This document shows, piece after piece, positions 18,828 through 47,623 of a stretch of 64,000 nucleotides of DNA. Positions within the stretch are counted from its first letter, which is position 1. Each line of letters starts with the position of its first letter. The notes beneath the pieces are model-generated. The model was not told the DNA's origin. It saw only the letters and a program-made list of their open reading frames with translations, and searched no databases. The position numbers were made by a program, and so were the translations under genes. The stretch comes from Candidatus Omnitrophota bacterium. GTDB taxonomy: Bacteria; Omnitrophota; Gorgyraeia; Zapsychrales; JANLHA01. The stretch spans positions 14,984 to 78,983 of the forward strand of contig JAGLHE010000055.1 of assembly GCA_023143685.1 (NCBI GenBank), given 5' to 3'.

Positions 18828-19289
18828 TTATAAATTCAGCATCAACTCAAAATTATATTGCTCACCACTCAAAATAACACGGTCTTTCTGAATATCAATT
18901 ACCGTATATTTATCTATCCGTGTCCCAATCTGAACAATCCTGTTGTTGATAATCGCTGTGGGCGTTACACTATCCCAGGCAATACCCATAAGGTGCAGAT
19001 CTGAAGATGTTTCGTCCGCTGTTCTTCGCGGGGCAGGAAAAAATGGATCCCGAGTTACCTCTAAATCTTCTGTCTCTTTCTCGAGCTTTCCGTAAAACTT
19101 TCTATCCACCACGTCAGGCTCTGAACCTGCTTGTGCTGCCAAAGTCTCGGTCGTTATACCCACAGGACTCTTCGCCCGCCTGGTTTTCTTTGCTTTCTTC
19201 TGAATCGAAGGAATAAGAAAGACCGCAAGGATCAGCAGCAATATTCCTGAAATGGATAATTGAATAATTTCTTTCTTGTTTAAATTCAT
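18828..19289 (-). CDS. PilP-like type IV pilus assembly lipoprotein/periplasmic protein
   Basis: N-terminal TM, C-terminal beta-domain; lies last in the pilM-N-O-P order. Confidence 0.45.
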   Translation of the reverse strand: MNLNKKEIIQLSISGILLLILAVFLIPSIQKKAKKTRRAKSPVGITTETLAAQAGSEPDVVDRKFYGKLEKETEDLEVTRDPFFPAPRRTADETSSDLHLMGIAWDSVTPTAIINNRIVQIGTRIDKYTVIDIQKDRVILSGEQYNFELMLNL

Positions 19290-19858
19290 GACAATAAATA
19301 TACATTCAGTTCAAGATGAACATCTAAAGTTTTTCCTGGCGCAGAACTCTTCCTGATATTCAATTTTTCAACCGTCAAATAAACCGGCAAATCAATTTTC
19401 AAACGCTCCAGATACTTAATAATAGTCGAATAATTACTTTTCAGCTTCATGGAAACAAGAACCTTGTAGCAACGCCGCCCCTCCATCACCACCTGCTGAT
19501 TATTTTCATCAAGAAACAGTGTTTTACGTTGCGTCCTTGTATTTTGGATTTCTATCTTCAATTCCCGGGCCAAGTCATTCATCAACCGCAAAGCATCCTC
19601 TTCCCTTTTAGGAAACTTTCGCTCCAATCCATCATATTGATTCGCAATATCTTGCAATGCTTCTTTAATTGTTTTTTTCTGATCAATAACAGATTCAATT
19701 TGCTGAATCTGGCTTTCAATCCCTTTCATCTCATCTTTTAGCCGCCCAATAACACCCTGCCCGGGCAAATAAATAAAAAGCAGGACAATCAAAACAATGC
19801 CCACACCGATACTCATAAACATAAAAATCTTTTGTTGAGCTAAACTGATCTTTTGCAT
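19286..19858 (-). CDS. PilO-like type IV pilus assembly protein
   Basis: N-terminal TM, coiled coil; 190 aa; overlaps the neighbouring genes. Confidence 0.55.
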   Translation of the reverse strand: MQKISLAQQKIFMFMSIGVGIVLIVLLFIYLPGQGVIGRLKDEMKGIESQIQQIESVIDQKKTIKEALQDIANQYDGLERKFPKREEDALRLMNDLARELKIEIQNTRTQRKTLFLDENNQQVVMEGRRCYKVLVSMKLKSNYSTIIKYLERLKIDLPVYLTVEKLNIRKSSAPGKTLDVHLELNVYLLS

Positions 19859-19897
19859 TTTCTCTTACCTGTGCCCCGGCAACACTCACTCAGAACA

Positions 19898-21532
19898 TCA
19901 ATAAACTAAATCACATTTAATTTCAAACACCCTTGAAACACCTTGGATATCCGATGAAACTAACGTAGCCTCTTCAAAAAAAGATGAAGACTCTAATTGC
20001 TCCATAAGCACTGTCAAAACCGGCTCCCCAATGCTGGCACTGAAAGGAGCAGCCCCTTTCATCACCACACTATGCTGATCATGGTCAAAAAACAACTCTC
20101 GCAAAACAACGTCTTTGGGAACAATCGTCCCGACAACCTTCAGAAGGCCATTAACAGGAAGGTGGCCAGCCACAATCTTTTCCATGAGGCCTTCACGCAT
20201 AATAATCTTTTGTTTAAGAAATTTAATTTCACCCACAGCTTGCAAATGACGTTTAGCATACTCAAGCCGTGCCCGATAATCCCGTATCTGAAACTCCGTA
20301 ATGAACAATAAAAATAAAAAAATTGCCCCAACCGATACCGCACAGAGCCGCAAAAACACTCTTTGAAATTGCTCAATTCTTTGCGTTTGGATCTCAAAAG
20401 GCAACAGGTTAATTGTGCGTGCACCGCCCATCGCCGCCCCGACGGCATTAACGATTCGGTTCTGATCATCCATCCCAATCTCTAACCCTTTTTGTGGCCG
20501 GGCGTCAATACATGGCGGGAAAAAAAGATACGAAATCCCGATCCCTGTTTCTTTACGCAAATATTTCCCGAGATTTTTTAAGTTAGCTCCTTCTCCCGTG
20601 ATGTAAAGGACCTCTGGACGCCCCTGCCCGAAAGTACTGACAAAATAATCAAAAGAAAAACGTATCTCTCTCACAATAGTTTCTAACACCGGCCTGAGAA
20701 GGGATAGCACATAACTCGCAGGGATCTCTTCTGTCAACCGGGCATTCTCATCTACAGGAATACCAAATTTGTTTTTCAAGTTTTCTGCTTCATCGTACGT
20801 TAAAGAAATTCGCCCCTTTTCTGAAACCAAACTTTCTGTCAACGCTTGTGTCATCCGCTGAGCTGAAACCGGGATTTCACGTGTAAAACAAAGCTTGTTC
20901 TCCACGTAAATACTTAAAACCGTATCTTTGCAATCAATATCTAAAACCGCTGAAATCTCGGGGTTCCCCGGTAAGTCTTTAAATAAATCACTATAATTAA
21001 AAGACGCACTGGTAATGCCAAATGGACTCAGGCCGCATTCGTCAAGAATAGACAAATAAGAATCCACTGTCTGTCTGGCGATAGCAATAAAAACTATTCC
21101 GACCTTCCTGGCGCCATCAGCATCTTCATACTCCCGAACCACATGCCAGTCAATGCAAGCTGTTTCAATATCAAAAGGAGCCTCTTCCTTCAATTTCCAT
21201 TTCGCCGCGCCCAAGAGTTCATCTTTCGGCAAAACAGGAAGTTCCAGATGCTGAACAAACACAAACTCCACATCAGAAATACTCACAACAACTTCTTTTT
21301 CCTGAATATTATTATCCTTAAGAAAACTCTGAATAATTCCTGTCATCACCTTAGAAAGATCTCCGACGTCATCCGGGATTCCCTGAAAGGCATAGGCTAG
21401 TATACGATATCCCTTCGCCGACGACTCCATATGAACAAGCTCAACCGATGAATGATTAAAGTCAATCGACAAAAACCTTGTCATCTTCTTTTGAAAAGGC
21501 TCAATAAATTTAAGAATCGTTTTGTATTTCAT
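19898..21532 (-). CDS. Fused PilM (actin-like ATPase) - PilN type IV pilus assembly protein
   Basis: Actin-like PilM region of about 350 aa, followed by INLLPFE plus a TM and a PilN-like C-terminus. Confidence 0.65.
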   Translation of the reverse strand: MKYKTILKFIEPFQKKMTRFLSIDFNHSSVELVHMESSAKGYRILAYAFQGIPDDVGDLSKVMTGIIQSFLKDNNIQEKEVVVSISDVEFVFVQHLELPVLPKDELLGAAKWKLKEEAPFDIETACIDWHVVREYEDADGARKVGIVFIAIARQTVDSYLSILDECGLSPFGITSASFNYSDLFKDLPGNPEISAVLDIDCKDTVLSIYVENKLCFTREIPVSAQRMTQALTESLVSEKGRISLTYDEAENLKNKFGIPVDENARLTEEIPASYVLSLLRPVLETIVREIRFSFDYFVSTFGQGRPEVLYITGEGANLKNLGKYLRKETGIGISYLFFPPCIDARPQKGLEIGMDDQNRIVNAVGAAMGGARTINLLPFEIQTQRIEQFQRVFLRLCAVSVGAIFLFLLFITEFQIRDYRARLEYAKRHLQAVGEIKFLKQKIIMREGLMEKIVAGHLPVNGLLKVVGTIVPKDVVLRELFFDHDQHSVVMKGAAPFSASIGEPVLTVLMEQLESSSFFEEATLVSSDIQGVSRVFEIKCDLVY

Positions 21533-21541
21533 AATAATTTC

Positions 21542-22099
21542 TTATTGAAACTTTTTAACCGCTACCGACGTGCTCATATCTGCCCGGCCTTCCCAGGCGT
21601 CGTAACTTCCCGTGCCAGTCTGTGCAACCAAATTATTTATTACTATCCTCCGGACATCCTCCGGCACACTGGTGACTGCTCCAGCCCCATCATAAAAAGA
21701 AAATAACTGTGCGCTATCCGTGGACAAACTTACGCCAGCTATTTGATAATACGGAATAAAACTCCACGGGTCACCATCAACCGAACGCTCCAAACGATCC
21801 GTGGCTTGATTTAAACGATATCGGATTGTCTGGCTATCCTGGTTAATAAACTCAACCTGGCTGCCGCTTATCGCCGTAATTTCTTTACTGAAACGCAATC
21901 CTTTCGCCTGGGCATCACCGTCCACAATAATATCCAAAGCATCCGCGGCCAGCATGTCCATATTCAGCTGATTCGGGAGAAACACCGTATTCTGCACCAA
22001 AAAGACCATAATGTAACCTCCTGATACAGAAAGTGTTGCAATAATTGCAATCACCATAACCAGCTCAATCAGTGAAAATCCTCGTTGATTATACCCCAT
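21542..22099 (-). CDS. Minor pilin / pseudopilin (type IV prepilin N-terminus)
   Basis: GFSLIELVMVIAIIA prepilin cleavage/methylation motif. Confidence 0.7.
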   Translation of the reverse strand: MGYNQRGFSLIELVMVIAIIATLSVSGGYIMVFLVQNTVFLPNQLNMDMLAADALDIIVDGDAQAKGLRFSKEITAISGSQVEFINQDSQTIRYRLNQATDRLERSVDGDPWSFIPYYQIAGVSLSTDSAQLFSFYDGAGAVTSVPEDVRRIVINNLVAQTGTGSYDAWEGRADMSTSVAVKKFQ

Positions 22100-22496
22100 A
22101 AGTCACATTCTTGGCAACATAAGTTACTAAACTTACGAGCACAGTTGCACTGCCTGACTTTGTTACCTGGACAGTGATTTGTTTTAACGCCTCAACACTT
22201 GAATCATTGCCAGAAGCATAACTAACCGTTCGCGTGACATCATAATCATAGCTTTGATAATTCGGGAATGAAGCTGTTGTAATATTTGCAAAATCCAGGT
22301 TATCAACTAACTCTATTTCATATTGCGCTAAATAAAGGGCTGCAGTGTAATCCTGGGATAAAAACGCACTCTGTATGTAACGTGCTACCAGCGATGCTAA
22401 AGGCAACGCCACAATCGTGACAATAACGATTGTCATAATCAGCTCGATTAATGTGAACCCTTTTTGTTTACGGCATGATCTCTGTATTAACTTCAT
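22089..22496 (-). CDS. Minor pilin / pseudopilin
   Basis: KGFTLIELIMTIVIV prepilin motif. Confidence 0.7.
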   Translation of the reverse strand: MKLIQRSCRKQKGFTLIELIMTIVIVTIVALPLASLVARYIQSAFLSQDYTAALYLAQYEIELVDNLDFANITTASFPNYQSYDYDVTRTVSYASGNDSSVEALKQITVQVTKSGSATVLVSLVTYVAKNVTYGV

Positions 22497-23256
22497 AATA
22501 ATTTGTAATATTTCCTATTATAGCATTATAATCGGCATGGATTGTATGATAAATACTGGACCCAGCTATTTTCCCTGTGGATTCAACAGAAAAGTTATAA
22601 TTATTCGATGCGGGGAAAACCGTCACATCTTTTATGGAACCGCCGGTCATAACAAACTGCACATTAACAGTTGACCCTGTCATATCTTTATCAAAACGAA
22701 AATAATCAATTGCATATCTTGTCGGGATGATATCAAGTGTAAAATCACTAATATCCGCATCAACAGGAGACGCCAAATTCCCAGTCCAAACATTTTTCCC
22801 ATTAATACGGATCCTGCGTAAAGATGGACTTGTATCCCAGGAAACGATCATACGCTCAATAATAATCGGCTGCGAATTCGTTGCATTCTGAATATAAATT
22901 TCTTCAAGTAAATTATTTTTAGATCCTGTCAAAACAGATGCTGACAGGTCCACCATTAAAAGGCCTGCATCACCACCGCTACTGCTTGCGCCTAAGACAA
23001 AGTAACTATCGTCTATGTTTGTTTGGCCTAAAGAAAAGTATCCATTACCGACTGTATCTTGAAAACGAAAATTATAGATCGCACTCTGAATACCAGCCTG
23101 GGCAAGGTACAAAGCCTTCTTATCAATTTCTTTAACACCTGTTTGAGACAATCTTTGAATAATAAAAGTAGCAACCCCTAAAACAGCGACGGATGCAAAT
23201 ACCATCAGCATAATTGAGGCAACGAGAGTAATTCCTTTTTTATTTGGTAAGATCAT
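22468..23256 (-). CDS. PilX-like minor pilin
   Basis: N-terminal hydrophobic helix KKGITLVASIMLMVF, about 260 aa. Confidence 0.5.
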   Translation of the reverse strand: MILPNKKGITLVASIMLMVFASVAVLGVATFIIQRLSQTGVKEIDKKALYLAQAGIQSAIYNFRFQDTVGNGYFSLGQTNIDDSYFVLGASSSGGDAGLLMVDLSASVLTGSKNNLLEEIYIQNATNSQPIIIERMIVSWDTSPSLRRIRINGKNVWTGNLASPVDADISDFTLDIIPTRYAIDYFRFDKDMTGSTVNVQFVMTGGSIKDVTVFPASNNYNFSVESTGKIAGSSIYHTIHADYNAIIGNITNYYEVNTEIMP

Positions 23257-23404: not shown

Positions 23405-23800
23405 CTAATTACCTATAAAACCCCCATCTCCAACGGTGTAGGTGTATGTTAGTCCAGTATCTGTGTCCGGACCAGTATAAGTCGTAGCGCCTTGTTTTGT
23501 CCAACCTTCTGTAATCCCCCCTTGTGATAAAATTGTATCAAAACAAGGAGCGCTGGCTGAACATGCGGTTGGTGCGCCTGCATTGCCATCCAGCGTTGCA
23601 GGAAAAGCCTTGTTCTGCGCAAAATAAGTTTGGATCCCGGCACGGACACCACCCACAACACCTTTTTCAGCAGCTGTGTTAGCATCACTTTGCAGGTCAT
23701 AATATCTCGGAATCGCTACCGCAGCCAAGACACCCAGGATCACGATGATCATGATCAATTCGATGAGGGTAAAACCTTTGTTTCTTCTCATCTGCTCCAC
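23405..23800 (-). CDS. Type IV major pilin (PilA-like)
   Basis: KGFTLIELIMIIVILGVLAAVAIP; 131 aa; C-terminal Cys pair. Confidence 0.8.
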   Translation of the reverse strand: MEQMRRNKGFTLIELIMIIVILGVLAAVAIPRYYDLQSDANTAAEKGVVGGVRAGIQTYFAQNKAFPATLDGNAGAPTACSASAPCFDTILSQGGITEGWTKQGATTYTGPDTDTGLTYTYTVGDGGFIGN

Positions 23801-23930: not shown

Positions 23931-25151
23931 CTATCTCTTAAACAAGCTCATCAAATCCCACATCGGCAAAAAGATTCCTAATGCCACAAACAAAACAATT
24001 CCGCCAAGGACAAAAACTAAAATCGGTTCAATCAAAGACACCAAATTATTAATCGTATGGTCTGCCTGGGAATCATAATAGTCCGCAATATGAAGCAACA
24101 ACTCATCCAGCTTGCCTGTCTCTTCTCCAACCGCGACCATCTGCGTGACAACCGGTGAAAACAATTCACTCTGCTGGATCGGGGCCAGCATTCCGCTTCC
24201 TTCATTCACACTTTCTTTAATATCCTCAATCGCGCGCGCAACAATAATATTGCCAACACTTTCTTTAACAATACCAAGGATCTGCAAAATCGGCACACCA
24301 CTGTGCATCAATGTTCCTGTAACACGACAGAACCTTGACATAGTTAACTTTAAAAAGAGCGGGCCGAAAATTGGTATTTTTAATTTTAACCTATCCCAAA
24401 TGATTTGTCCTCTATTTGTTTGAATAATTTTATGCGCCAAAAAAATAATGCCAGCAACAGCCAGGGCCAATAACCACCAATAATTTCGAACAAGATAATT
24501 CGTCCCCAACAACACACGCGTCGGGAAAGGCAACTCAGTGGTAAACTGGTCATACAGATTTGAAAACTTGGGGACAACAAACGTCACCAACCCCAAAAAG
24601 CCAAGGACAAGAGACACGACGACAAGAAGAGGATAACGCATCGCCCCCTCTATGCGCATACGGATAACTTCGTCATGCTCCCCTAACTTTGCCAGCCGCT
24701 CTAAGGTTTCTGGCAGACGGCCGGAAACTTCACCAGACTCAAGCATATTCACATACATCCGGTTAAAAACTCCAGGATGCCGGCCAAAGGCTGTTGAAAG
24801 ATTTGATCCTGCCTCAATATCCCGGGAAATCTGGCCTAAAACATCTCTCAAAACAACATTCGTTGCCTGGTCTTTAAGTGCACGCAAACTTGCAAGAATC
24901 GGCAAACCAGCTTTTTGTAACGCAAAAAGCTGACGGGTAAACATATTAACATCCTGAAAGCGCACCCTTTTAAACTTATCTATAAGCTTCGCGCTAGGCA
25001 GTTCTGTTTCCCTTTGCTCATTAATCGCAATAGGCAAATACGCCATCTGTTCCAATTTAGACGCAACCGCATCCCTGGAATCAGCACCCATAACCCCTTC
25101 AACCAATTTTCCAAATTTGTCTCGAGCTTTATAACGATAGGTCGTAGCCAT
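23931..25151 (-). CDS. pilC: Type IV pilus inner-membrane platform protein PilC (GspF family)
   Basis: Two GspF repeats, about 406 aa from the internal Met MATTYRYKARD. Confidence 0.8.
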   Translation of the reverse strand: MATTYRYKARDKFGKLVEGVMGADSRDAVASKLEQMAYLPIAINEQRETELPSAKLIDKFKRVRFQDVNMFTRQLFALQKAGLPILASLRALKDQATNVVLRDVLGQISRDIEAGSNLSTAFGRHPGVFNRMYVNMLESGEVSGRLPETLERLAKLGEHDEVIRMRIEGAMRYPLLVVVSLVLGFLGLVTFVVPKFSNLYDQFTTELPFPTRVLLGTNYLVRNYWWLLALAVAGIIFLAHKIIQTNRGQIIWDRLKLKIPIFGPLFLKLTMSRFCRVTGTLMHSGVPILQILGIVKESVGNIIVARAIEDIKESVNEGSGMLAPIQQSELFSPVVTQMVAVGEETGKLDELLLHIADYYDSQADHTINNLVSLIEPILVFVLGGIVLFVALGIFLPMWDLMSLFKR

Positions 25152-25188
25152 AAATCGCATTTTGCATTTTGCATTTCGCAAAAGCAAA

Positions 25189-26871
25189 CTATTCCACCTC
25201 TGTAACGCGCACCACCTCTTCAATCGTGGTAATGCCCTCTTTTGCCTTAAGAAGGCCATCTTCACGCAGTGTTTTCAAACCCTTTTCCCTGGTATATCTC
25301 TTTATTTCATCCACAGACTTTCGTTCATCAACCATCTTGCGAATTTCTTCATCAATCGTTAAAATTTCAAAAATCCCTGTCCGGCCTAAATATCCTGTTT
25401 GATGACATTCCTTGCACCCTTTTCCACGATAAAATGTCGTTCCATTCTCAATCCCTAATTCCCTAAATGCCTCCTCCGACAGAGCCTCTTTATCCCTACA
25501 CTTCGGACAAATCACCCGCACTAACCGTTGCGCTACGACACCGACAATCGCACTCGAAATCAAGAACGGTTCTACACCCATATCTATCAATCTCGTTAAC
25601 GCCGACGGAGCATCATTTGTGTGCAATGTTGAGAAGACCAAGTGGCCTGTTAGTGCCGCCTGAATAGAGACATCCGCTGTTTCTTTATCCCGGATTTCCC
25701 CGACCATAATAATATCCGGATCTTGTCGCAAAATACTGCGCAACCCCTTTGCAAACGTAATATCAGCTTTTGGATTAATCTGCGTCTGACGAATCAACGG
25801 CAACTCGTATTCCACGGGATCTTCAATTGTAATAATGTTCTTTTCAATTGAGCTGATCGTCGTTAAGGCCGCATAAAGGCTGGATGTCTTTCCGCTTCCC
25901 GTCGGCCCTGTTATCAAAATAATTCCATTTGTCCGACGGATCAACTTATCAAACACTTCCAAATCCTGCCCGACAAAACCTGTTTCTTTCAACCCCAAAA
26001 CAACTGATGAGCGGTCCAGCAAACGCATCACAACATTTTCTCCATGGATTGTCGGAAATGTTGAAACACGCACATCCAGATCTTTATTTTCAATCTTCAA
26101 ACGGAATCGGCCGTCTTGCGCTTTACGGCTTTCCGCAATATCCAATTTTGACAGAATTTTAATACGAGAAATAACGGCCCCTTGCAGCCTTTTTGGCAAA
26201 ACCGTTATTTCGTGAAGCAACCCATCAATCCGGTTACGGACACGCACACCTTCTTCCTCGGGTTCAATATGAATATCCGAGACCCGATCCTTAACCGCTT
26301 GCGACACAATCGTGTTAACTAATTTAATAACCGGGGCTTCTTCTGCGACCTCAACCAGGCTATCCACTCTCCCTGCAATCTCTTTATCAATCGACTGAAC
26401 AATATCTTCAATCGTTCCACCCCCCCGATAAAAAGTGTCTAAAATTCTTTGAATCCCTTTCTCTGAAACCGCTACCGGCTCAACCATCTCCATCTTACTG
26501 ATTCGACGGATATGATCCACGGCGACAATATCCTGCGGATCAAGCATTCCGATTGTCAAACTGCTCCCTATCTTAAAAAGTGGAACAACCTTATATTTTT
26601 TAACAACATTCTCAGTGATAAGCTTTGTGATTTCCGGATCAATAGCATAATCCGTTAAATCGACATAAGGAAGCCCAAGCGCAATGGCCTGGGCTCTAAC
26701 AATGTCTTCTGAAACAATAAATCCAAGTTTTTCCAAAGCCTTTTCAATACTAAGGCCTGTCCGCATGGCCTCTTGTCTGGCTTTTTCCAGGACCTCTTGA
26801 TTAACAAGGCCTTCCTTAAGCAGAAGGTCAATGATCTCTCTTTGCCGACGGACAATATTTTGTTTTTCCAT
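25189..26871 (-). CDS. pilB: Type IV pilus assembly ATPase PilB (GspE family)
   Basis: Walker A GPTGSGKT, Asp box, His box, tetracysteine CPKC...CKEC; N-terminal GspII domain. Confidence 0.85.
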   Translation of the reverse strand: MEKQNIVRRQREIIDLLLKEGLVNQEVLEKARQEAMRTGLSIEKALEKLGFIVSEDIVRAQAIALGLPYVDLTDYAIDPEITKLITENVVKKYKVVPLFKIGSSLTIGMLDPQDIVAVDHIRRISKMEMVEPVAVSEKGIQRILDTFYRGGGTIEDIVQSIDKEIAGRVDSLVEVAEEAPVIKLVNTIVSQAVKDRVSDIHIEPEEEGVRVRNRIDGLLHEITVLPKRLQGAVISRIKILSKLDIAESRKAQDGRFRLKIENKDLDVRVSTFPTIHGENVVMRLLDRSSVVLGLKETGFVGQDLEVFDKLIRRTNGIILITGPTGSGKTSSLYAALTTISSIEKNIITIEDPVEYELPLIRQTQINPKADITFAKGLRSILRQDPDIIMVGEIRDKETADVSIQAALTGHLVFSTLHTNDAPSALTRLIDMGVEPFLISSAIVGVVAQRLVRVICPKCRDKEALSEEAFRELGIENGTTFYRGKGCKECHQTGYLGRTGIFEILTIDEEIRKMVDERKSVDEIKRYTREKGLKTLREDGLLKAKEGITTIEEVVRVTEVE

Positions 26872-26965: not shown

Positions 26966-27340
26966 CTAACTTTTATTAATCAACTCTTTCACTTTTCCCA
27001 TCAATATTTCCGGGTCAAATGGTTTCGTGATATATGCATCCGCGCCGACTTCATACCCGAGTTTTCGATCTTGCTCCTGGACGCGAGCCGTAAACATAAT
27101 AATCGGAATATCTTTATATTTCTCGTCAAACTTGAGCATCCGGCAGACCATATATCCATGCATTTTCGGCAACATAAGATCAAGAATAATTAAATCCACC
27201 GATTCACCGCGCGCCTTATCCAAAGCAACCTGGCCATCCGTCGCTGTTACGACCTCATACCCCCTGGCCTCAAGCTGCATCTTGACCGCGTAGACCATAT
27301 CCTCTTCATCGTCGACTAAAAGAATTTTTTTCTTACTCAT
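26966..27340 (-). CDS. Single-domain response regulator (receiver)
   Basis: ILLVDDEEDM, DLIILDLMLPKMHG, ITKP motifs; 124 aa; overlaps the upstream kinase gene. Confidence 0.8.
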   Translation of the reverse strand: MSKKKILLVDDEEDMVYAVKMQLEARGYEVVTATDGQVALDKARGESVDLIILDLMLPKMHGYMVCRMLKFDEKYKDIPIIMFTARVQEQDRKLGYEVGADAYITKPFDPEILMGKVKELINKS

Positions 27341-29483
27341 AATACAATTTCAATTCTTCCGAAAGAAGTTTTTGATCCTTTTTTGATATTTTTGTAAATT
27401 CAATACCCATTCGATACCGCGGCATCGTCTCTCCGGGAGGTATTCCCAAGTCTTTAATCCATGCCATACGCCCTGCTGCTTGAATAATCTCCCTTTTTTT
27501 AATAAGCTCAATTTTCACTTTGAATATCTCATCCGTTTTTATCGGGACATGACTATCAAAACAAGAACCATTTTCCGAAAGATCAACTGTCTGACATAAA
27601 CGACTTGCCTTATCCGGATATATCGCTTCCAGGGCGGTATTATACTTAATTCTTTTACTACGTCGTATTTCTGAGCCAATATAAATCTCTTTAATATTAA
27701 GATTTGTCCTGGATCCTGCGTTGTCCTGAGGATAATCATTCACCGAATATGCCATCATTCCCAATGCAATAAAAACATCATCAATATTATTTTGCAAAAA
27801 ATAAAATTTTGTTTTATCCCGCACACATTCACAAAAGTCGGACATAACCCTGGCCTTAACGCCGGAAAATATAACGCTGTACTTCCCTTGTTGAATCTCT
27901 GCAATCTCAATTTGATTGTCTTCCCTCATGTGTTCATGAAAAATTTCCTGATGCGCTTCATCCATAATCCGCCTGAGCTGGCCATAAAAATCCTTTGGCT
28001 TCACATCCACCTTTTTCTTAAACTCGTCGTAATTGACAATCATAAGATTAACCAAAAACACCGACTTATCTAATGCCAGAAACTCATTAATCCTTTCCTG
28101 AGTTGCTTCCGGGACAACCGTGGCTGTGTAGAATCTAAAAAGCGTAAAATAAATTTTTGTCCCTACCCCGGCTTCGGACTCAGCCCAAATCTCTCCGCCA
28201 TGCTGCTCAACCAACTCTTTAACAATAGCAAGGCCTAACCCTAATCCCTTTTTGCGGTCTTCACTTTTTTTCCCTACCTGGACAAATTTATTGAAAATCT
28301 TCGGCAAGTCTTCTTCCGAAATCCCCATACCCGTATCAATCACACCCACGCGCACCTTTGACTGCAAGACCTCCAGCTGAACCTTAATAGATCCATTTTC
28401 TCCTGTAAACTTGATCGCATTCGTAACAAGGTTAGTAATAACCTGAACGATTCTTTCCGCATCCACAAAGATCGTGATGGCATGTTTAGGCAATTGATAC
28501 GTAATTTTAATATTTTTCTCAGCAGCCTGTTTTTTAAAATAAGTTCTCGTCTCCTTCAAAAGGGCACTAAGATTAACTAACGAATATTGCAATTTAAGCG
28601 TTTCACGTTCAATACGCGAGGCATCCAGAAGCTTATCAATAATCCCTGTCAAACGGTCAATTTGAGAGCGAACCTTAACAACAATTTCTCTTTGTTTGTC
28701 ATTGATCGGCCCTGGAATCTCATCATAAATCAACAAAAACAATTGTTTCATAACAGCTAACGGTGTACGCAACTCATGCGAAACAGCCGATATGAATTCC
28801 GACTTCATTTCATTGGAACTGTCTTCCTCCAAAGATTCTATTTGACGTTCAACTTCCGCGCGCTTCTCACGCGCCTGCTCCGCCTTAAGACGCTTTGTCA
28901 CATCCCGGGTTACACAAATCATACCAATAATTTTCCCACTCTTATTATAATGTGGGACTTTGGTTGTAGAAACAAAGTTATCCTGGCCATCCGGCCGCGT
29001 AGCGCGTTCAATTTTATCAATAATCGAATACCCTGTCTGCATAACAAAATTATCATCTTCCGTCATTCGCTCCGCGCGATCTTTCGGGAAGAAATCAAAA
29101 TCCGTTTTCCCGATAATTTGCGCTGGCTTTAATTTAAGTCCCTTCGCGTAGGCCTTGTTAACCAGCACAAACTGCCCCTTGAGGTTTTTAAAATAAACGA
29201 CGTCGGGAACCTGATCCATAAAGTCCGTGAACAGTTCAAGGCCTTGCGGCACAACAGGTAAAATTTTTGCAATTGATTTTGTTTTAATAGCCCCGGAAGG
29301 AACTTTTGCTTTTGATTTGAGGCTTATCCTGGATTTTGTAGAAGTTTTTATGACTGCTTTCTTCTTTTTCATAGCGGAAACCTTACAAAAATCCTTTAGA
29401 AATCGTGGCTTATTTTCGAAAAATTTAATACAATATTTATTATTAGTAAAATTTATATTCGGGGATGATATTCGTGCTGTCAA
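27333..29483 (-). CDS. PAS-histidine kinase with a C-terminal degenerate GGDEF-like region and a PilZ domain
   Basis: PAS (VLVNKAY...), H-box SHELRTPL, G-boxes DTGMGI/GLGLGLAIV; C-terminus RRSKR...DLSENGSCF, a PilZ-like RxxxR / DxSxxG signature. Confidence 0.65.
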   Translation of the reverse strand: MTARISSPNINFTNNKYCIKFFENKPRFLKDFCKVSAMKKKKAVIKTSTKSRISLKSKAKVPSGAIKTKSIAKILPVVPQGLELFTDFMDQVPDVVYFKNLKGQFVLVNKAYAKGLKLKPAQIIGKTDFDFFPKDRAERMTEDDNFVMQTGYSIIDKIERATRPDGQDNFVSTTKVPHYNKSGKIIGMICVTRDVTKRLKAEQAREKRAEVERQIESLEEDSSNEMKSEFISAVSHELRTPLAVMKQLFLLIYDEIPGPINDKQREIVVKVRSQIDRLTGIIDKLLDASRIERETLKLQYSLVNLSALLKETRTYFKKQAAEKNIKITYQLPKHAITIFVDAERIVQVITNLVTNAIKFTGENGSIKVQLEVLQSKVRVGVIDTGMGISEEDLPKIFNKFVQVGKKSEDRKKGLGLGLAIVKELVEQHGGEIWAESEAGVGTKIYFTLFRFYTATVVPEATQERINEFLALDKSVFLVNLMIVNYDEFKKKVDVKPKDFYGQLRRIMDEAHQEIFHEHMREDNQIEIAEIQQGKYSVIFSGVKARVMSDFCECVRDKTKFYFLQNNIDDVFIALGMMAYSVNDYPQDNAGSRTNLNIKEIYIGSEIRRSKRIKYNTALEAIYPDKASRLCQTVDLSENGSCFDSHVPIKTDEIFKVKIELIKKREIIQAAGRMAWIKDLGIPPGETMPRYRMGIEFTKISKKDQKLLSEELKLYYE

Positions 29484-29537: not shown

Positions 29538-32192
29538 TTATTTGACTTCTTGCGTTGGTAATATTACTTTAAATGTGCTGCCTTCTCCTACCTTTGATTC
29601 TACTTCAAGAGTCCCTCCGTGGTTCTCTATTATATTATGACTAACTGAGAGCCCTAATCCTGCGCCATCACCAACATCTTTGGTAGTGAAGAAAGGATCA
29701 AATATCATATCTTTGTTTTCTTCAGAAATTCCACCGCCATTATCTTTAATCTCAGTTATTAAACGATTACCGTCCTGATAAATTTTAATGCATATTTTTC
29801 CTTGTTTGCTTTCTTTTGCATATGTCTCGTTAATGCAATATATGGCATTCATTAAAATATTTGTAAAGACTTGTCCTAATTCATTCGCATTACCCTTTAC
29901 CTGAGGAACATTACCATATTCTTGTTCAACGGTAATACAATTATGCAACAAATCATGATTAATCAGAATGAGGGTATCTTCAACTATTTTTTTAATATCA
30001 ACAAAATCAAATTCTTCCTTTGATTTTCTGGAGTAATTCAATAACTGTTCAACGATAACCTTACAGCGCAGAGTGCTTCTTTCAATTAAGTTTAAAGACT
30101 CTTGCTGAAACTCATCAGTAGTTTCAAGTTTGAGCATCTCGGCATTTGTCAAGATAGTGCCTAATGGAGTATTAATTTCATGTGCTACTCCCCCGGCTAA
30201 CACACCGACTGTTGCCATTTTTTCAGATTGGACTAATTGTTTTTGTGTTGATTTTAGCTTTTCATAAGCTTCTTCTAAATCTTCATTCTTTTCCTGTAAT
30301 ATATCTACATATTCTGCCTTGGTTTCAGCCTTAGCCATTCTTTGGGTGAGTTTTTTCTCTTGATCAATTAATTTAGCATTTCCGATTGCAATAGTGGCCT
30401 GATTTGCAAGAATCGACAAAATCTGCAAATCATCTTTTGTGAAAACCTCTGAACTTCTTTCGATATTTAAAACTCCAATAACCGTATCTTTCTCTATGAA
30501 AGGCACACTTAATAATGATTCCGTATAATAACTTTCCTTATCATTATTTTTAAATCTCGAATCATTTTTCACACTGGGAACTAATAATGCTTTTTTCTCC
30601 TGAGCGACCCATCCCGAAATGCCTTCCCCTATATTGGCTCTTGTCTCTTTTGAATCATTTTGATCAATACCAATACTGGAAAAAACGGATAGATAGGGAT
30701 TATTATCAAATAGTAAAAAGGCGCATTTATCAGCGCCTAATATACGATGGGCACTGCTCGTAATAATTTCATATAAATCGACAATATTAAATATGGAACA
30801 AATAGTAGTTCCTACGCCGAAAAGGTCGGATAATCTTTTAGTGAACTGTTTCAATTGATCCTGCAACGCTTTTGTACGTAATAATGCATACACGCGAATT
30901 AACAAATCAATTTTATTAACGGGCTTTGTCATATAATCATCCGCGCCCATATTATAGCCATATATTTTATCTATTAAGGTATCTTTGCCTGTTAACATTA
31001 TTAATGGTATATCTTTTAACATATCATTTTTTCTTATTTCCTTGCAGAATTCATAACCTGACATCCTCGGCATCATTAAGTCAAGAATAATCAGGTCTGG
31101 TTTTTTCTCTGTTGCTAATTGCAAACCTTCAACCCCGTCAGGAGCAGAGATAACATTATAATTGTTTAATTTTAATCTGCTGTCAAGGACTTCAATATTT
31201 ATGGGTTCGTCATCTATAACCAATATAGTCTCGCCATTACCTTTTGGCTCCTTCTTGAATTTTTCTTCATCCTGTTTTAATTCATAAACCTTGCTGACGG
31301 GTTTCTTTTCAGTTTGTTCAGCCATGCCTGGTTGAGCCCTTCTTAACAGTGCCTGCATCCTGGCTATCAACTCTTCGTTATCAAATGGTTTTACTATATA
31401 ATCATCCGCGCCCAAGTTGAACCCTTCTACTTTATCTGCAGTGGTTACCTTGGCTGTTAATAATATTATCGGAATATCTTTTATTGTTTCATCCTCTTTT
31501 GCCATCTTGCAAAATTCAAACCCGTCCATTCCAGGCATCATGACATCCAATACCACTACGGCAGGCTTCACTTCGCGCATTTCTTTTAAGCCCTTTACTC
31601 CATCCTGAGCAGATATAGTTTTGTAGTTATGTGAACTTAAGGCCACCTTAAGTGCCTCAATATTGATAGGCTCGTCATCTACAACCAGTATAGTTTCACC
31701 ATTGCCTTTATTAGCTTTTACTTTGACAGTTTCTTCAATCTCCGGGACTGCTTTTAACATCTGCTGCCTGTCTGTCCTTTTTGTCTCCATCTGATCTTTC
31801 TGTTTCTCACTATTCCCAGAATCTATCTCAAATGGTTTTTTGGGAACAGTGAAATAAAAAGTAGTTCCTTTATCTAATTCACTCTCAACCCATATTTTAC
31901 CTTTTTGGAGTTCAACCATTTCTTTAGTGATTGCCAGCCCCAAACCAGTCCCTTCATATACTCTTTTAGCTGAACCATCAGCTTGTCTGAACCTTTCAAA
32001 GATTATATCTAAATCTGATTGATTCATTCCAATGCCGGTATCACCTACAGCTATCTTTATTTCATCCTCATTTTCATCATAAATATCGATACTTACTTCA
32101 CCATTATGTGTAAATTTCACTGCATTACCTACCAAGTTCAGCAGGATCTGCCTGAGTCTTCTTTTATCACCATATACAGTTATTTCATCCAT
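29538..32192 (-). CDS. C-terminal part of a split multi-domain hybrid sensor kinase (HATPase_c N-box onward - REC - REC - GAF - HisKA - HATPase_c)
   Basis: Starts directly in the N-box (RLRQILLNLVGNAVKFT); two DDEP..D..MP receivers; second H-box HEINTPL; terminal GDGAGLGLSV. Confidence 0.6.
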   Translation of the reverse strand: MDEITVYGDKRRLRQILLNLVGNAVKFTHNGEVSIDIYDENEDEIKIAVGDTGIGMNQSDLDIIFERFRQADGSAKRVYEGTGLGLAITKEMVELQKGKIWVESELDKGTTFYFTVPKKPFEIDSGNSEKQKDQMETKRTDRQQMLKAVPEIEETVKVKANKGNGETILVVDDEPINIEALKVALSSHNYKTISAQDGVKGLKEMREVKPAVVVLDVMMPGMDGFEFCKMAKEDETIKDIPIILLTAKVTTADKVEGFNLGADDYIVKPFDNEELIARMQALLRRAQPGMAEQTEKKPVSKVYELKQDEEKFKKEPKGNGETILVIDDEPINIEVLDSRLKLNNYNVISAPDGVEGLQLATEKKPDLIILDLMMPRMSGYEFCKEIRKNDMLKDIPLIMLTGKDTLIDKIYGYNMGADDYMTKPVNKIDLLIRVYALLRTKALQDQLKQFTKRLSDLFGVGTTICSIFNIVDLYEIITSSAHRILGADKCAFLLFDNNPYLSVFSSIGIDQNDSKETRANIGEGISGWVAQEKKALLVPSVKNDSRFKNNDKESYYTESLLSVPFIEKDTVIGVLNIERSSEVFTKDDLQILSILANQATIAIGNAKLIDQEKKLTQRMAKAETKAEYVDILQEKNEDLEEAYEKLKSTQKQLVQSEKMATVGVLAGGVAHEINTPLGTILTNAEMLKLETTDEFQQESLNLIERSTLRCKVIVEQLLNYSRKSKEEFDFVDIKKIVEDTLILINHDLLHNCITVEQEYGNVPQVKGNANELGQVFTNILMNAIYCINETYAKESKQGKICIKIYQDGNRLITEIKDNGGGISEENKDMIFDPFFTTKDVGDGAGLGLSVSHNIIENHGGTLEVESKVGEGSTFKVILPTQEVK

Positions 32193-32229
32193 TTTATATT
32201 ACTCTCCATAAAGATCGCGTCCTATTATT

Positions 32230-33375
32230 CTAAGTATGTACCTCTAACTTAACATTTACATCCGGCTTATCTCTTACCAGCCCTTCTGCTATAGGCATAA
32301 CTGTGTCCATTACATCTTTGAGGTTAAACTCCTGAACATCAAACTCCATCAAGCCGGCTTCAAGCTTGGAAAGATCCAGAAGGTTATTTACAAGTTCAAG
32401 AAGGCTTACACTGCATTTTTTTACCATCTGCATATGTCTGTCCTGTTCAGCATTAACAGGGCCGTCCGCGCCATCGAGTATTGAGTCTACCAGGCCGATT
32501 ATACCATTCAGGGGAGTTCGCAGTTCATGAGAAGTGTTTGCCAGGAACTCACTTTTCAGTCTGTCGAACTCTTTTAATTCCAGGTTCTGTTGGTCTAATT
32601 TCTGTATACCTGTAGACATCTTTTCAGTCATTTCATTAAATGCAACGGCTAATTCTCCGATCTCATCTCTTGTTTTGATTTGTATTCTGTGCTCAAGATC
32701 TCCTGAACCGATTTTCTGCGCGCCAAGGTGTAATAATTTAATCGGTTGAGTTAATGTACGCACAAAAATAACAGCAACAATGACACCAAATATTAGAATC
32801 CCCAGAGATATAAGAAAAATCTTTACAGTCACAACACTGACCAGCCTTTTCATTCTCTCTTGTGATGCGCCTAATATTAACGCACCAATAAGCCTGTCAT
32901 CTATTCTTATTTCACGTTTTATCTCGAGGATTTCTTCATTTTCATATCTGACCTTTTCAATATAGAAATTATTATCTTCATCAATATCATATTCATAATT
33001 AATAATTTTATTAAATGCCTCAACATTTGTTTTTCCAACTTTATTTTGATCACTATCACCGATTATTCTACCGGTATCATCAAATAGCGTTAAATATAAT
33101 ATGTCCGTTTCCTCTATAACATTAGTACAAATTTTTATCAACAGAGTATAATCCCAGCTTAAAGTTGCCTCTTTACTGTTTTGTGCCAGGCTGGATGATA
33201 ATGTTTCTAAACGCATCATATTCTCAGTCCGGATCATATTTCGTATATTATTCAGGAAGAATATACTCGAAGCCAGAATAGCAAGCACTAGAAGGGAAAT
33301 GGTTACAATGAGGTATTTTTGCAGAATGCTTAAGGTTAATCTTTCTTTCTTAACAGGGATTTTCAATTCGTCCAT
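32230..33375 (-). CDS. N-terminal part of the same split sensor kinase (2 TM periplasmic sensor - HAMP - HisKA)
   Basis: H-box SHELRTPLNGIIG; ends 13 codons before the N-box would be expected; about 37 nt with stops in both frames separates it from 29538..32192. Confidence 0.6.
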   Translation of the reverse strand: MDELKIPVKKERLTLSILQKYLIVTISLLVLAILASSIFFLNNIRNMIRTENMMRLETLSSSLAQNSKEATLSWDYTLLIKICTNVIEETDILYLTLFDDTGRIIGDSDQNKVGKTNVEAFNKIINYEYDIDEDNNFYIEKVRYENEEILEIKREIRIDDRLIGALILGASQERMKRLVSVVTVKIFLISLGILIFGVIVAVIFVRTLTQPIKLLHLGAQKIGSGDLEHRIQIKTRDEIGELAVAFNEMTEKMSTGIQKLDQQNLELKEFDRLKSEFLANTSHELRTPLNGIIGLVDSILDGADGPVNAEQDRHMQMVKKCSVSLLELVNNLLDLSKLEAGLMEFDVQEFNLKDVMDTVMPIAEGLVRDKPDVNVKLEVHT

Positions 33376-33402
33376 ATTTGGAATCTGCCTTGTTGTAAAT
33401 TT

Positions 33403-33455
33403 TAAGGAGAGCCTGAACAGTGCAGAAATTACACACTGTTCAGGCTCTCCTTTTT
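33403..33455. terminator. Perfect 18-bp stem hairpin followed by a T-tract on the + strand (intrinsic-terminator-like)
   Basis: aggagagcctgaacagtg..cactgttcaggctctcct then ttttt; sits between the SBP and the kinase genes. Confidence 0.5.
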
Positions 33456-33460
33456 GATAA

Positions 33461-34393
33461 TTATTTATTACCTTTCTTTTCTTTTTTCTTCTTGTCAGCC
33501 ATTGATTGCCAGTGGTCGAGATCATAAAATTCGGGGCCATAAACAGTATCAATTACTTTTTTTATTCCTATATAATCTTCCCATGTGACAGATACCCATT
33601 TATCATATTTTCTAGCAACCTTTAACATACCTTCCATATCTTTCTCGTGCATATTCAGGACAGCATCCTTAACTTTTTTCAAGGTCGCTTCATCAACTTT
33701 TTCTGTGTTTACGCAAAAAGGAAATTCAGGAACAGCAGTATGTCTCCAAAGACTCCTTAATTTTGCGCCTTCTGTATTAAATGAATCGAAGGTTGCCTCA
33801 TTAATAAAACAGCCATCGAATTGTTTACTAATTACGGATTGCGCGGCATTGTCATGCCTTCCCAAGTATTCAAATGTACCAAAATAAGTAAACTTATCAA
33901 TGTTTTGATTTTTAAGCCAGGCACTGGGCATTAAATTCCCTGATGTTGAAGAGGCACTGGTTCCGCATACTTTCTTGCCTTTCAGGTCTTCAAGTGACTG
34001 AAAAGGAGCATCTACTCTTACTGCAAGATGTCCGTGATAAGCTGGTGCTCCGGATTTTTGAGCACATGCAAATGGAACAACAGGACCGGTTTCATGTGCC
34101 TGCACACAGGTAACAGAGGCAAGCCAGGCAAAATCAATCTTACCGGTTGATATATCTCTGACAATAGCCGTGTATCCGCCGGTATATCCTGTAGTCGGAT
34201 ACAGTCTTAATCGAATGTCCAGCCCGGTTTCTTCTTGTAAATGTTTTTCAACTGCATCAAATCTTTTTAACATTTCAGAGGGTTTTCTCAGAGGGAGGAT
34301 TCCTAGGTAATAAGTTCTTGCCCAAGCTGCTTCAGCTTGTGAGAAGAAAATACACAAACATACCAACGTGATTCCTATAACTTTTTTGACCAC
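33461..34393 (-). CDS. PhnD/SsuA-like periplasmic substrate-binding protein (phosphonate ABC-type SBP fold), probably a sensor partner of the kinase
   Basis: Signal peptide; type-2 periplasmic binding fold motifs (YPTTGYTGGYTAIV, GTSASSTSGNLMP). Confidence 0.55.
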   Translation of the reverse strand: MVKKVIGITLVCLCIFFSQAEAAWARTYYLGILPLRKPSEMLKRFDAVEKHLQEETGLDIRLRLYPTTGYTGGYTAIVRDISTGKIDFAWLASVTCVQAHETGPVVPFACAQKSGAPAYHGHLAVRVDAPFQSLEDLKGKKVCGTSASSTSGNLMPSAWLKNQNIDKFTYFGTFEYLGRHDNAAQSVISKQFDGCFINEATFDSFNTEGAKLRSLWRHTAVPEFPFCVNTEKVDEATLKKVKDAVLNMHEKDMEGMLKVARKYDKWVSVTWEDYIGIKKVIDTVYGPEFYDLDHWQSMADKKKKEKKGNK

Positions 34394-45797: not shown

Positions 45798-46806
45798 ATG
45801 CTAAACTGTACTTAACCGCCCGCGTTGTCCCCTCCTTAACTACGATACCACACTTAACTAACGGCGCAATAAGCTGATTCACCCTTGCCCTGTTTATTTG
45901 CATATATTCACAAATTTGGGCAGAACCCATAATGCCATGCCCGGAAAGAAGATTTAACAATTCTTCTTGCTTTGGTGTTAACCGCATTTTCTTTGCTGCT
46001 TTAGTGCGCTTAACCATTTTTAACCGACGAGATACTTCGTGAACAGAATCCAACAACCCCTCAGCCACATAATCAATCCAATAAGTATAATCCCCGTCCA
46101 TATCACGGGTCTGCTGAATCATATCATAATAGCGCCCTCGATCCGCTGCAAAAAAATCATCAAGGCCAAGGGTATACAACGGATCATATCCTTTTTCAAA
46201 AAGCAACCACTGAGACGCCACCCTGGCGACGCGCCCGTTTCCATCAACAAATGGATGAATGGTTACAAACTCATGGTGAAAAATAGCATTTATAACAATA
46301 GGATGATTTTCTTGAGATTTTTTAACCCAATTAAGAAGGCTAGACATGCGTTGCGCAACTTTTCCAGGAGCAGGCGGTGTACAGACAACGACATTTCTTG
46401 AATTAACAACATAATTCTGCACATGCCTGTATTTTCCACACTTGCTTTCTGCCAACATCCCATTAGTCATCATTTCATGGAGCCTTAACAATCTCTTCTC
46501 AGTTAAATTCTTGTCTCTATTTTGAAGAATCCACTTGACGGCTTTAATACAATTATTAACCTCTCGCTTTTGGTCTTCCTCTGCGATCACATTCTTATTA
46601 GCTGCCAACGCAACAACTTGATCAAAAGATAGCCTGTTACCTTCAATCCAGGTAGACGAGTGAACACTACGATTAATAAATTCTCTCTCTAGTCTAACCT
46701 GTAAAGGTAGAGTAATATCAGCGCGTTTGATAAAGGAAACCTGGGAAGCGATTTTCTCGCAACACTTCACAAAGCAATTTGACATTCGATATTGAGGATT
46801 AAGCAT
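45796..46806 (-). CDS. Fic family protein (AMPylation/Doc-like) with C-terminal wHTH
   Basis: Fic motif HPFVDGNGRVAR; the N-terminal extension in the ORF track overlaps repeat copy 2, so the internal start was chosen. Confidence 0.8.
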   Translation of the reverse strand: MLNPQYRMSNCFVKCCEKIASQVSFIKRADITLPLQVRLEREFINRSVHSSTWIEGNRLSFDQVVALAANKNVIAEEDQKREVNNCIKAVKWILQNRDKNLTEKRLLRLHEMMTNGMLAESKCGKYRHVQNYVVNSRNVVVCTPPAPGKVAQRMSSLLNWVKKSQENHPIVINAIFHHEFVTIHPFVDGNGRVARVASQWLLFEKGYDPLYTLGLDDFFAADRGRYYDMIQQTRDMDGDYTYWIDYVAEGLLDSVHEVSRRLKMVKRTKAAKKMRLTPKQEELLNLLSGHGIMGSAQICEYMQINRARVNQLIAPLVKCGIVVKEGTTRAVKYSLA

Positions 46807-46908
46807 AATGAAAGCATAACATATTGTATAGCTTTTGTATAGGATATTGTATAGGACGACTATCCAGGAGGCCGATTCTTCGTCTAATACCAAAAAAAAC
46901 CCGCCACA

Positions 46909-46974
46909 AGTCATTGACTCGCAACGGGGTAAGAGGTGGGGTCGGTGGCTGAAGCAGGTTAGAACCTGTTTAAC
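46909..46974. repeat. Cassette-boundary repeat, copy 2 (3' end of the NYN gene)
   Basis: agtcattgactcgcaacggggtaagaggtggggtcggtggctgaagcaggttagaacctgtttaac. Confidence 0.7.
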
Positions 46975-46990
46975 AATCTAAACCATTACT

Positions 46991-47623
46991 CTACCAGCTA
47001 TCTGGCTTATAAATTTCGTCATCCCCTACTTTGAACGGACTAGAAAGCAAATTATTGATATATTGTTTTTTGCCAATAGAGAAAGATTTTGGAGCAATTC
47101 TTGCCAATTCACTATTCTTTCTATTAAAAGGAAATGCAAAAAGAAAAGTTTTATCCTCAAAAATCCTTTCACACACTTCTACAGCAGGAAAAAGATCTGT
47201 GTCCCCAGAGACAACAACAATCTGATCACAATCATCGCAATGACAAAGTTCAAACATTTTAAGTGCAATGGAAACATCCGTTTCCTTTTCCTCATGTTTA
47301 AGAATGTTACTTTTACACCGATGACAATATACGTCTTTCTCCTTAAAACGCCCCCTTACGACCTTTATATTTAAACTTTCTAAACACTTAATGTAGGTTA
47401 AATGCCTTTCAATTTTTTCAGGATACCTAGACTCTAAGTAAAACGGTATGGCTGTAAAATAGTAAATATCTTGCAAAACTGCATCACGTCCAAATAAAGA
47501 CAGATAAGATTCACAAAGAGAACGTACGTTAAGCCATTTCGCCTTATACCGAGTTTTTTGCTCTAAACTTCGAATCGAGTGATATAAATTAAATCCATCA
47601 ATCAAAAAACAAACCCTCATCAT
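46991..47623 (-). CDS. NYN-domain protein (LabA/DUF88-like predicted RNase)
   Basis: CFLIDGFNLYH, TDVSIALKMFEL, VVVSGDTDLFPAV motifs. Confidence 0.65.
   Translation of the reverse strand: MMRVCFLIDGFNLYHSIRSLEQKTRYKAKWLNVRSLCESYLSLFGRDAVLQDIYYFTAIPFYLESRYPEKIERHLTYIKCLESLNIKVVRGRFKEKDVYCHRCKSNILKHEEKETDVSIALKMFELCHCDDCDQIVVVSGDTDLFPAVEVCERIFEDKTFLFAFPFNRKNSELARIAPKSFSIGKKQYINNLLSSPFKVGDDEIYKPDSW

Follow-up and report, generated by a model that had tools for sequence, protein, structure and literature searches.

Several histidine kinases come under the control of cyclic di-GMP (c-di-GMP), such as CckA and ShkA of Caulobacter, RavS of Xanthomonas and SgmT of Myxococcus, which respond to the second messenger in their kinase/phosphatase or phosphotransfer output. 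None of them senses it through a PilZ domain, the ligand site lying in the catalytic (CA) domain of CckA and RavS, in the I-site of the GGDEF domain of SgmT and in the pseudo-receiver of ShkA. A PilZ domain enters such a pathway in Pseudomonas aeruginosa, where the stand-alone PilZ adaptor HapZ controls the phosphotransfer of SagS by binding in trans to the receiver (REC) domain of this hybrid kinase. Here, a locus is described in 64,000 nucleotides of DNA from a Candidatus Omnitrophota bacterium (assembly GCA_023143685.1, contig JAGLHE010000055.1, positions 14,984 to 78,983; the whole stretch is hereafter called the window), in which a soluble histidine kinase carries a PilZ domain at its own C-terminus, its gene overlaps that of a stand-alone receiver, and the pair heads a type IV filament cluster. 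Like HapZ–SagS, it is predicted to employ a canonical PilZ domain of the c-di-GMP-binding type to modulate a two-component phosphorylation pathway, but here a dead GGDEF domain links PilZ in cis to the kinase, which is not a hybrid, and the operon is a pilus cluster. SgmT also possesses a C-terminal degenerate GGDEF domain, whereas the GGDEF-like domain of the window kinase lacks an I-site and the conserved site sits in the PilZ domain. Dedicated PilZ surveys and full-text literature searches yielded no histidine kinase to which a PilZ domain is covalently fused. Both the ligand-sensing domain and the signalling logic of the locus are known; what is undescribed is their covalent arrangement, which comes with a clear and conserved genomic assignment. 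The proteins of the locus are present in databases under generic names, the identical kinase at NCBI (MCK5580244.1, from a Candidatus Omnitrophota metagenome-assembled genome, MAG) being automatically named 'PAS domain-containing protein'.

The regulators of type IV pili provide a second comparison. PilG and PilH, each a receiver of a single domain, act at the post-translational level, and the PilZ protein that binds PilB in Xanthomonas has no known c-di-GMP motifs and is not known to bind c-di-GMP. The FimX–PilZ–PilB and MshE/MshEN systems, in which c-di-GMP controls a PilB-type ATPase, resemble the locus in the degenerate GGDEF domain of FimX, in the participation of a PilZ protein and in the MshEN domain that the local PilB carries; in FimX, however, it is a degenerate EAL domain that does the sensing, and there is no kinase. 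Phosphorylation-based pilus control, as treated in PMC12632253, links the locus with PilS–PilR and Pil-Chp, but PilS is a multi-pass membrane kinase, PilR is an NtrC-type transcription factor and Pil-Chp uses a CheA-type kinase, whereas the window kinase is soluble, HisKA-type and PilZ-tailed and its receiver is devoid of an output domain. Identity with PilS–PilR was rejected because the kinase has no transmembrane segment and the receiver has no AAA+ or helix-turn-helix (HTH) domain, and Chp-type identity was rejected on domain content. The same order of HisKA, HATPase_c, GGDEF and PilZ domains, the same PilZ motifs and a downstream receiver were observed in outgroup kinases (MBN1410896.1 of a Spirochaetales MAG, and P0074, P0088, P0092 and P0115), which are uncharacterised database entries carrying the degenerate GGDEF signature xGEC. 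They are remote homologues of the window tail; their GGDEF domains are still recognised by Pfam (26–54 bits), whereas that of the window family is not, and their link with pilus genes is looser or absent.

The first-pass annotation of the window had placed at 27333–29483 a histidine kinase with the order PAS, HisKA and HATPase, followed by a degenerate GGDEF region and a PilZ domain. The boundaries of this open reading frame (ORF) are exact, yielding 716 amino acids when read from TTG, and the account is to be corrected in that the gene runs on the minus strand. The ATG at 29372, at which gene calling in both public assemblies of this sequence (ENA and Logan) begins the gene, gives a protein of 679 amino acids; this start was adopted and its numbering is used unless stated otherwise, the loss of 37 N-terminal residues leaving the domain content unaffected. 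Pfam recovered PAS_4, HisKA, HATPase_c and PilZ in the annotated order, the first three at residues 90–198, 226–293 and 341–448 in the 716-residue numbering, and the features are listed in Table 1. In a 20-sequence alignment of the family, which spans 32–49% identity, the histidine of the H-box SHELRTPL (His199) is nearly invariant, and HATPase_c has intact N, G1 and G2 boxes, with N314, N318, D346, G348, G350, G376, G378 and G380 invariant, so that the protein has the H-box histidine and the nucleotide-binding boxes of a class I (HisKA-type) sensor histidine kinase. No transmembrane segment was detected in the kinase (maximum 19-residue Kyte–Doolittle mean hydropathy of 1.44), and since no hydrophobic stretch is long enough for a membrane helix, the kinase is taken to be cytoplasmic. 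A short conserved linker, RFYT, follows the catalytic domain. To judge from these residues and from those of the receiver given below, both kinase and receiver look competent.

Table 1. Features of the kinase–receiver locus and of the filament cluster behind it (window coordinates; residues in the 679-residue numbering, with the 716-residue numbering where marked).
Feature	Coordinates	Strand	Basis
Soluble sensor kinase gene, PAS–HisKA–HATPase_c–degenerate GGDEF–PilZ	27333..29372	minus	ORF, Pfam, gene-caller start
PAS sensor domain, residues 53–161	28890..29216	minus	Pfam PAS_4 71.8 bits, PAS_9 37.3 bits
HisKA dimerisation/phospho-acceptor domain, residues 189–256	28605..28808	minus	Pfam HisKA 50.8 bits
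HATPase_c catalytic domain, residues 304–411	28140..28463	minus	Pfam HATPase_c 106.7 bits
Degenerate GGDEF-derived palm domain, residues 413–547	27732..28136	minus	AlphaFold 2, Foldseek, hhalign; without Pfam match
PilZ domain and C-terminal helix, residues 569–679	27336..27668	minus	Pfam, AlphaFold 2, Foldseek
RxxxR motif, RRSKR, R570–R574 (607–611 of 716)	27651..27665	minus	Motif scan
[D/N]xSxxG motif, DLSENG, D597–G602 (634–639 of 716)	27567..27584	minus	Motif scan
Receiver-only protein, 124 residues, presumed cognate response regulator	26966..27340	minus	Pfam Response_reg 99.4 bits, residues 6–117
PilB/GspE-type assembly ATPase with N-terminal MshEN	25189..26871	minus	Pfam T2SSE 460.9 bits, MshEN 63.9 bits
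PilC/GspF platform protein	23931..25187	minus	Pfam T2SSF 192.9 bits, NCBIfam matches
Major (pseudo)pilin with prepilin N-methylation motif	23405..23791	minus	Pfam N_methyl; NCBIfam IV_pilin_GFxxxE 24.2 against a cut-off of 16.3
Remaining filament cluster: 262-residue protein, two minor pilins, 544-residue PilM-like fusion, 190- and 153-residue proteins	18828..23256	minus	

The PilZ domain is the best supported part of the tail. The hidden Markov model (HMM) PF07238, by which the first-pass annotation had proposed to check its PilZ assignment, matches residues 606–708 of the 716-residue ORF, scoring 37.5 bits at E 3.2e-9 where the gathering cut-off is 22.5, and the RxxxR and DxSxxG motifs, on whose spacing the same annotation had staked the assignment, stand 22 residues apart, within the canonical distance of about 20–30. 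R570, R574, S599 and G602 are invariant in all 20 aligned sequences, and both motifs are present in 64 of the 65 PilZ regions of the family (62 with the 22-residue spacing), in a family whose overall identity is about 20–49% and whose tail outside the motifs has diverged to 20–40%; this retention amid divergence indicates purifying selection on the ligand site. The AlphaFold 2 model exhibits the six-stranded beta-barrel (strands within 168–250 of the model) and the C-terminal alpha-helix (252–266) of a PilZ domain, with a predicted local distance difference test (pLDDT) score above 90, and Foldseek matched it with the c-di-GMP-bound PilZ domains of Alg44, MapZ and YcgR (TMt 0.70–0.76, E down to 3e-6). 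The arginines of RxxxR sit in a highly conserved linker, IKEIYIGSEIRRSKR, that connects the PilZ barrel with the GGDEF-like domain. From motifs and model together, the PilZ tail can be predicted with good confidence to bind c-di-GMP. After the PilZ helix, one subgroup of the family, the window protein included, ends in a strictly conserved ELKLYYE (27336..27356, minus strand), which could be a docking motif, and other subgroups end in variable basic tails.

Between HATPase_c and PilZ lie about 135 residues (about 450–585 in the 716-residue numbering) without Pfam assignment. Modelled alone from an alignment of 27 sequences, this middle domain gave a pLDDT of 82.6 and a predicted TM-score (pTM) of 0.77, with a core of alpha-beta-alpha-alpha-beta-beta-alpha-beta, which a model of the whole tail also shows. 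In a Foldseek search of the PDB, the GGDEF domain of FimX (3hva) ranked first (E 8e-4, TM-score 0.58), with only a marginal lead over the next matches, 4urq of T. maritima, 6eib of V. cholerae, DgcB (6tts) and PleD (2wb4); the GGDEF matches span TM-scores of 0.53–0.58 and E-values of 8e-4 to 8e-3, and lower ranks are held by further cyclases of the palm fold, among them Cas10 and the adenylyl/guanylyl cyclases. Remote homology points the same way: hhalign aligned the middle domain of the family with the domains at the same position of six outgroup kinases over 121 columns in the expected register, at 96% probability and E 3.9e-9, and four of these six pass the Pfam GGDEF threshold, with 53.6 bits for P0074, 41.4 for P0088, 36.5 for P0115 and 26.5 for P0092. 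In the sequences themselves, the Pfam GGDEF model (PF00990) found no match even at E≤10 in the middle domain of any of the 27 family members, and a search of the family profile against PDB sequences returned a single diguanylate cyclase, 3ign, at an insignificant E of 1.5. The position of the GGDEF hairpin is occupied by QQGKY in the window protein, a GG[DE]EF active site is present in none of the 27 members, and no conserved arginine and aspartate in register with an RxxD I-site, five residues upstream of the active site, were seen in their alignment. A functional GGDEF domain, whether cyclase or I-site receptor, was rejected on these three absences; an accessory domain of the PilZN/YcgR_N type was rejected likewise, since the fold is an alpha/beta palm where a PilZN barrel would be expected, and Pfam returned no match of the YcgR type. 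By fold and remote homology, the middle domain is GGDEF-derived, a fossil and not a functional GGDEF domain, and the degenerate GGDEF of the first-pass annotation thus holds at these two levels, whereas the PF00990 match by which it was to be checked did not appear.

The 124-residue protein behind the kinase has the features of a CheY-like stand-alone response regulator. The first 8 nt of its gene are shared with the end of the kinase gene, its phospho-acceptor set (D10, D11, D54, T84 and K106) is intact, and Pfam found no output domain in it, neither AAA+ nor HTH. Across ten Omnitrophota loci, the receiver is 68–73% identical, against 47–52% for the kinase. No output domain and a conservation above that of the kinase together suggest that the receiver probably binds a conserved partner, most economically the co-encoded machine. 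A gap of 94 nt separates the receiver gene from the PilB-type gene, and the statement of the first-pass annotation that the kinase lies immediately upstream of pilB therefore stands as to its place at the head of a pilB–pilC–pilin cluster but not as to direct adjacency, the receiver gene intervening. A scan for promoters and terminators was uninformative as to promoters (20 promoter-like sites, where 12.8±3.5 were expected) and disclosed no convincing terminator between the kinase, receiver and PilB genes. In some relatives, one or two extra stand-alone receiver genes were observed directly upstream of the PilZ kinase (L008, 8006–8371; L009, 8028–8747), one of which is 60% identical to the downstream receiver, suggesting paralogous receivers that compete for the same kinase.

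The kinase family is small and was visible only by an exhaustive HMMER profile search of 1.84 billion representatives, which collected 39 clusters (E<1e-30, clustering at 50% identity); word-indexed homologue searches were nearly empty, with 2 and 5 matches. About a dozen of the proteins are full-length (648–657 residues) with the same architecture, and the named members are Candidatus Omnitrophota. The N-terminal sensor varies, with a REC domain replacing PAS in some members (P0026), and the tail of degenerate GGDEF and PilZ domains is constant. A scan of species-representative genomes with two peptide patterns found ten loci, a number that is a lower bound given this limited query, and all ten belong to Candidatus Omnitrophota MAGs, some of them labelled 'uncultured Planctomycetales'. 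The REC-headed variant P0026 sits in the same operon. Of the Omnitrophota loci recovered, 12, with the window counted, extend past the kinase, and a receiver gene overlaps the kinase in every one; 11 reach the PilB gene and eight carry the cluster through the PilM-like gene. As far as the contigs extend, tblastn gave an invariant order of kinase, receiver, PilB, PilC, pilin, 262-residue protein, minor pilins, PilM-like protein and two small proteins, with the part beyond the major pilin kept in order in L005, L008–L011 and L013, PilB identities of 58–69%, and no conservation of the genes upstream of the kinase. The synteny that the first-pass annotation had suggested looking for in relatives was therefore strongly borne out. 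In the outgroup, a receiver follows the kinase of P0072 and PilB–PilC lie about 5 kb further. Judged from gene order, the conserved core is the kinase with its degenerate GGDEF–PilZ tail plus the stand-alone receiver, and in Omnitrophota this core is dedicated to the filament cluster. One contig (L003, with P0001) was used for the C-terminal part only; its positions 1–490 hold unrelated GC-rich sequence in place of the kinase N-terminus, and chimerism or truncation in the metagenome assembly is the probable cause.

The nature of the filament machine can be narrowed only to the type IV family. The ATPase scores 592.9 with the PilB model of NCBIfam (TIGR02538, cut-off 675.65) and 599 with that of GspE (cut-off 630.25), both below threshold, and the PilM score of the cluster is 117.5 bits against a cut-off of 133. 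A flavour of the type II secretion system (T2SS) was observed in the gene order E–F–G–minor pilins–L/M-like and in weak GspG, GspM and GspC matches, the 190- and 153-residue proteins having faint similarity to GspM and GspC. As all the NCBIfam equivalog models are below threshold, a type IVa pilus (T4aP) and a T2SS-like machine are not firmly told apart, and the 'type IV pilus' of the first-pass annotation is better worded as a type IV filament (pilus/T2SS-like) machine. No secretin, PilT (retraction ATPase) or prepilin peptidase gene was found in the cluster or elsewhere in the window. Seymour et al. class such Omnitrophota clusters as T4aP, report them in nearly all Omnitrophota genomes, link them to host attachment and predation, and mention no c-di-GMP, PilZ or two-component genes for them (PMC10066038). 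The MshE-type c-di-GMP motif model NF053729 scores 23.4 bits on the local PilB, below its cut-off of 38, and by eye the RLG positions of its MshEN domain appear substituted; on this weak motif, the kinase may have taken over the c-di-GMP input from the ATPase in this lineage. The 262-residue protein between the major and minor pilins (22468..23256, minus strand) has no Pfam or NCBIfam match and recurs at the same place, with 35–62% identity, in every Omnitrophota locus that reaches it; by this recurrence it is an uncharacterised conserved component of the filament system.

These observations support the reading of the first-pass annotation, a kinase under c-di-GMP gating that would control the pilus, and suggest a mechanism in which the PAS domain would supply one input to the kinase and c-di-GMP another, by binding the RxxxR/DxSxxG site of the PilZ domain. 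Ligand binding would re-orient the two tail domains, in the way that it does in two-domain PilZ proteins of the YcgR type, would turn the tail module against the adjacent core of CA and dimerisation/histidine-phosphotransfer (DHp) domains and would so shift the kinase/phosphatase balance. The signal would pass to the translationally coupled 124-residue receiver, which would act by protein–protein contact on the filament machine (the PilB ATPase, PilC or PilM) and tune pilus assembly. The steps deserve different degrees of belief. That the receiver acts on the filament system is likely, that c-di-GMP binding allosterically gates the kinase is slightly favoured, and the whole chain, a c-di-GMP-gated two-component switch on the pilus machine through a CheY-like receiver, which draws on sequence, models and gene order, is evenly balanced. 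The wider proposal that Omnitrophota use a dedicated c-di-GMP-gated kinase and CheY-like receiver for the post-translational on/off control of their host-attachment pilus is put forward tentatively and stays on the doubtful side. Several results weigh against the chain. The closest solved relatives of the receiver are generic OmpR/PhoB-type and PleD receivers, with no hint of a pilus-specific partner; no diguanylate cyclase was found within the window; how the GGDEF-like and PilZ domains are oriented to each other was not confidently modelled, the two-domain tail giving a pLDDT of 81 and a pTM of 0.56; the machine could be T2SS-like and not a pilus, PilB and GspE scoring equally; and the Spirochaetales outgroup has the kinase and receiver pair with no pilus genes within 8 kb, which indicates that a tie to pili is not intrinsic to the module.

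The alternative that survives best gives the PilZ tail a different task, as a docking or localisation module that tethers the kinase to the pilus machine, whether or not in a c-di-GMP-dependent manner, with phosphorylation being local and kinase activity independent of the ligand, much as a Xanthomonas PilZ protein bridges FimX and PilB or as MapZ and HapZ bind partners through the PilZ C-terminal helix. The invariable position of the kinase gene beside PilB in Omnitrophota loci speaks for such tethering, as do the long C-terminal helix of the family with its conserved ELKLYYE end in one subgroup and the first rank, by a marginal lead, of the degenerate GGDEF of a pilus regulator, FimX, among the fold matches of the middle domain. 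The family keeps its c-di-GMP motifs, however, unlike the PilB-binding PilZ of the Xanthomonas type, and the fusion in cis behind the catalytic domain through the short RFYT linker favours intramolecular control; outgroup pairs of kinase and receiver also occur without adjacent pilus genes. Despite the common use of PilZ domains as c-di-GMP-dependent adaptors through a charged C-terminal helix (10.1101/814665; HapZ–SagS), docking in place of gating seems unlikely.

A second alternative retains the phosphotransfer but sends it elsewhere, the kinase and receiver being the start of a longer phosphorelay, or a phosphate sink, for transcription or another process, and their place in the cluster reflecting co-expression only. 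A receiver without an output domain fits such a relay, and further kinases and receivers occur near the kinase in the window (the hybrid kinase at 29538–33552), upstream in L008, L009 and L012 and beside the outgroup P0072. These upstream genes are not conserved between loci, whereas the order of kinase, receiver and PilB is invariant, and the cluster has no conserved Hpt protein or DNA-binding regulator, which makes the relay quite unlikely. Least probable, and indeed very unlikely, is a PilZ domain that in this lineage binds another ligand or none, the tail being a structural remnant of an ancestral GGDEF–PilZ fusion: the neighbouring GGDEF domain is clearly decayed, no diguanylate cyclase is seen in the window and non-binding PilZ variants exist (10.1101/814665), but both motifs are kept in 64 of 65 members of a diverged tail, the fold matches ligand-bound canonical PilZ domains and the window also encodes a candidate HD-GYP phosphodiesterase. 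Control of the kinase by c-di-GMP through the PilZ tail, with the receiver acting on the filament machine, stays the preferred reading.

Two-component genes are unusually frequent in the window, where at least five ORFs encode kinases or receivers. The phosphodiesterase candidate is a 402-residue protein with GAF and HD_5 domains (819..2027, minus strand) and an intact HHERHDGAGYP, and this intact HHExxDGxGYP signature indicates that the organism turns over c-di-GMP. An apparent 'GGDEF' motif in L010 was rejected as a spurious ORF on the opposite strand inside the kinase gene. The hybrid kinase upstream of the PilZ kinase (29538..33552, minus strand) looks interrupted: an ORF with HAMP and HisKA stops at 32230, and a second ORF, 37 nt later and in another frame, opens at HATPase_c and continues as REC–REC–GAF–HisKA–HATPase_c. 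The split is identical in the ENA and Logan assemblies and may represent a frameshifted pseudogene or a genuinely split kinase, and relatives do not keep this gene upstream of their PilZ kinase. A 730-residue sensor kinase with seven transmembrane helices (HisKA_7TM), GAF and HATPase_c lies at 2688..4880 on the minus strand. A low-GC stretch at about 45800..57300 (minus strand; GC 0.30–0.33 at 50–54 kb) holds genes for Fic, NYN, DUF4238 and two ParB–HTH proteins, an AbiEi/AbiEii-like pair (55797..56468 and 54989..55804) and a truncated HATPase_c–REC fragment (47962..48519), and it may be a mobile or defence island.

A predatory or parasitic life is presumed for the Omnitrophota, which are ultra-small bacteria, and their near-universal type IV pili have been proposed to serve host attachment (PMC10066038). 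Since the module of kinase and receiver heads the pilus cluster across Candidatus Omnitrophota, it points to a signal that may decide when the attachment organelle is deployed. If the PilZ tail gates the kinase, it would represent a modular and easily recognised wiring of a second messenger into a phosphorelay, and the fossil GGDEF domain would record how this wiring arose. The proteins of the kinase module are soluble and open to in vitro tests that need no culture of the organism. A post-translational switch of this kind, if true, would be an undescribed coupling of c-di-GMP to two-component signalling and would give the first entry point to the regulation of the attachment organelle in an uncultured phylum.

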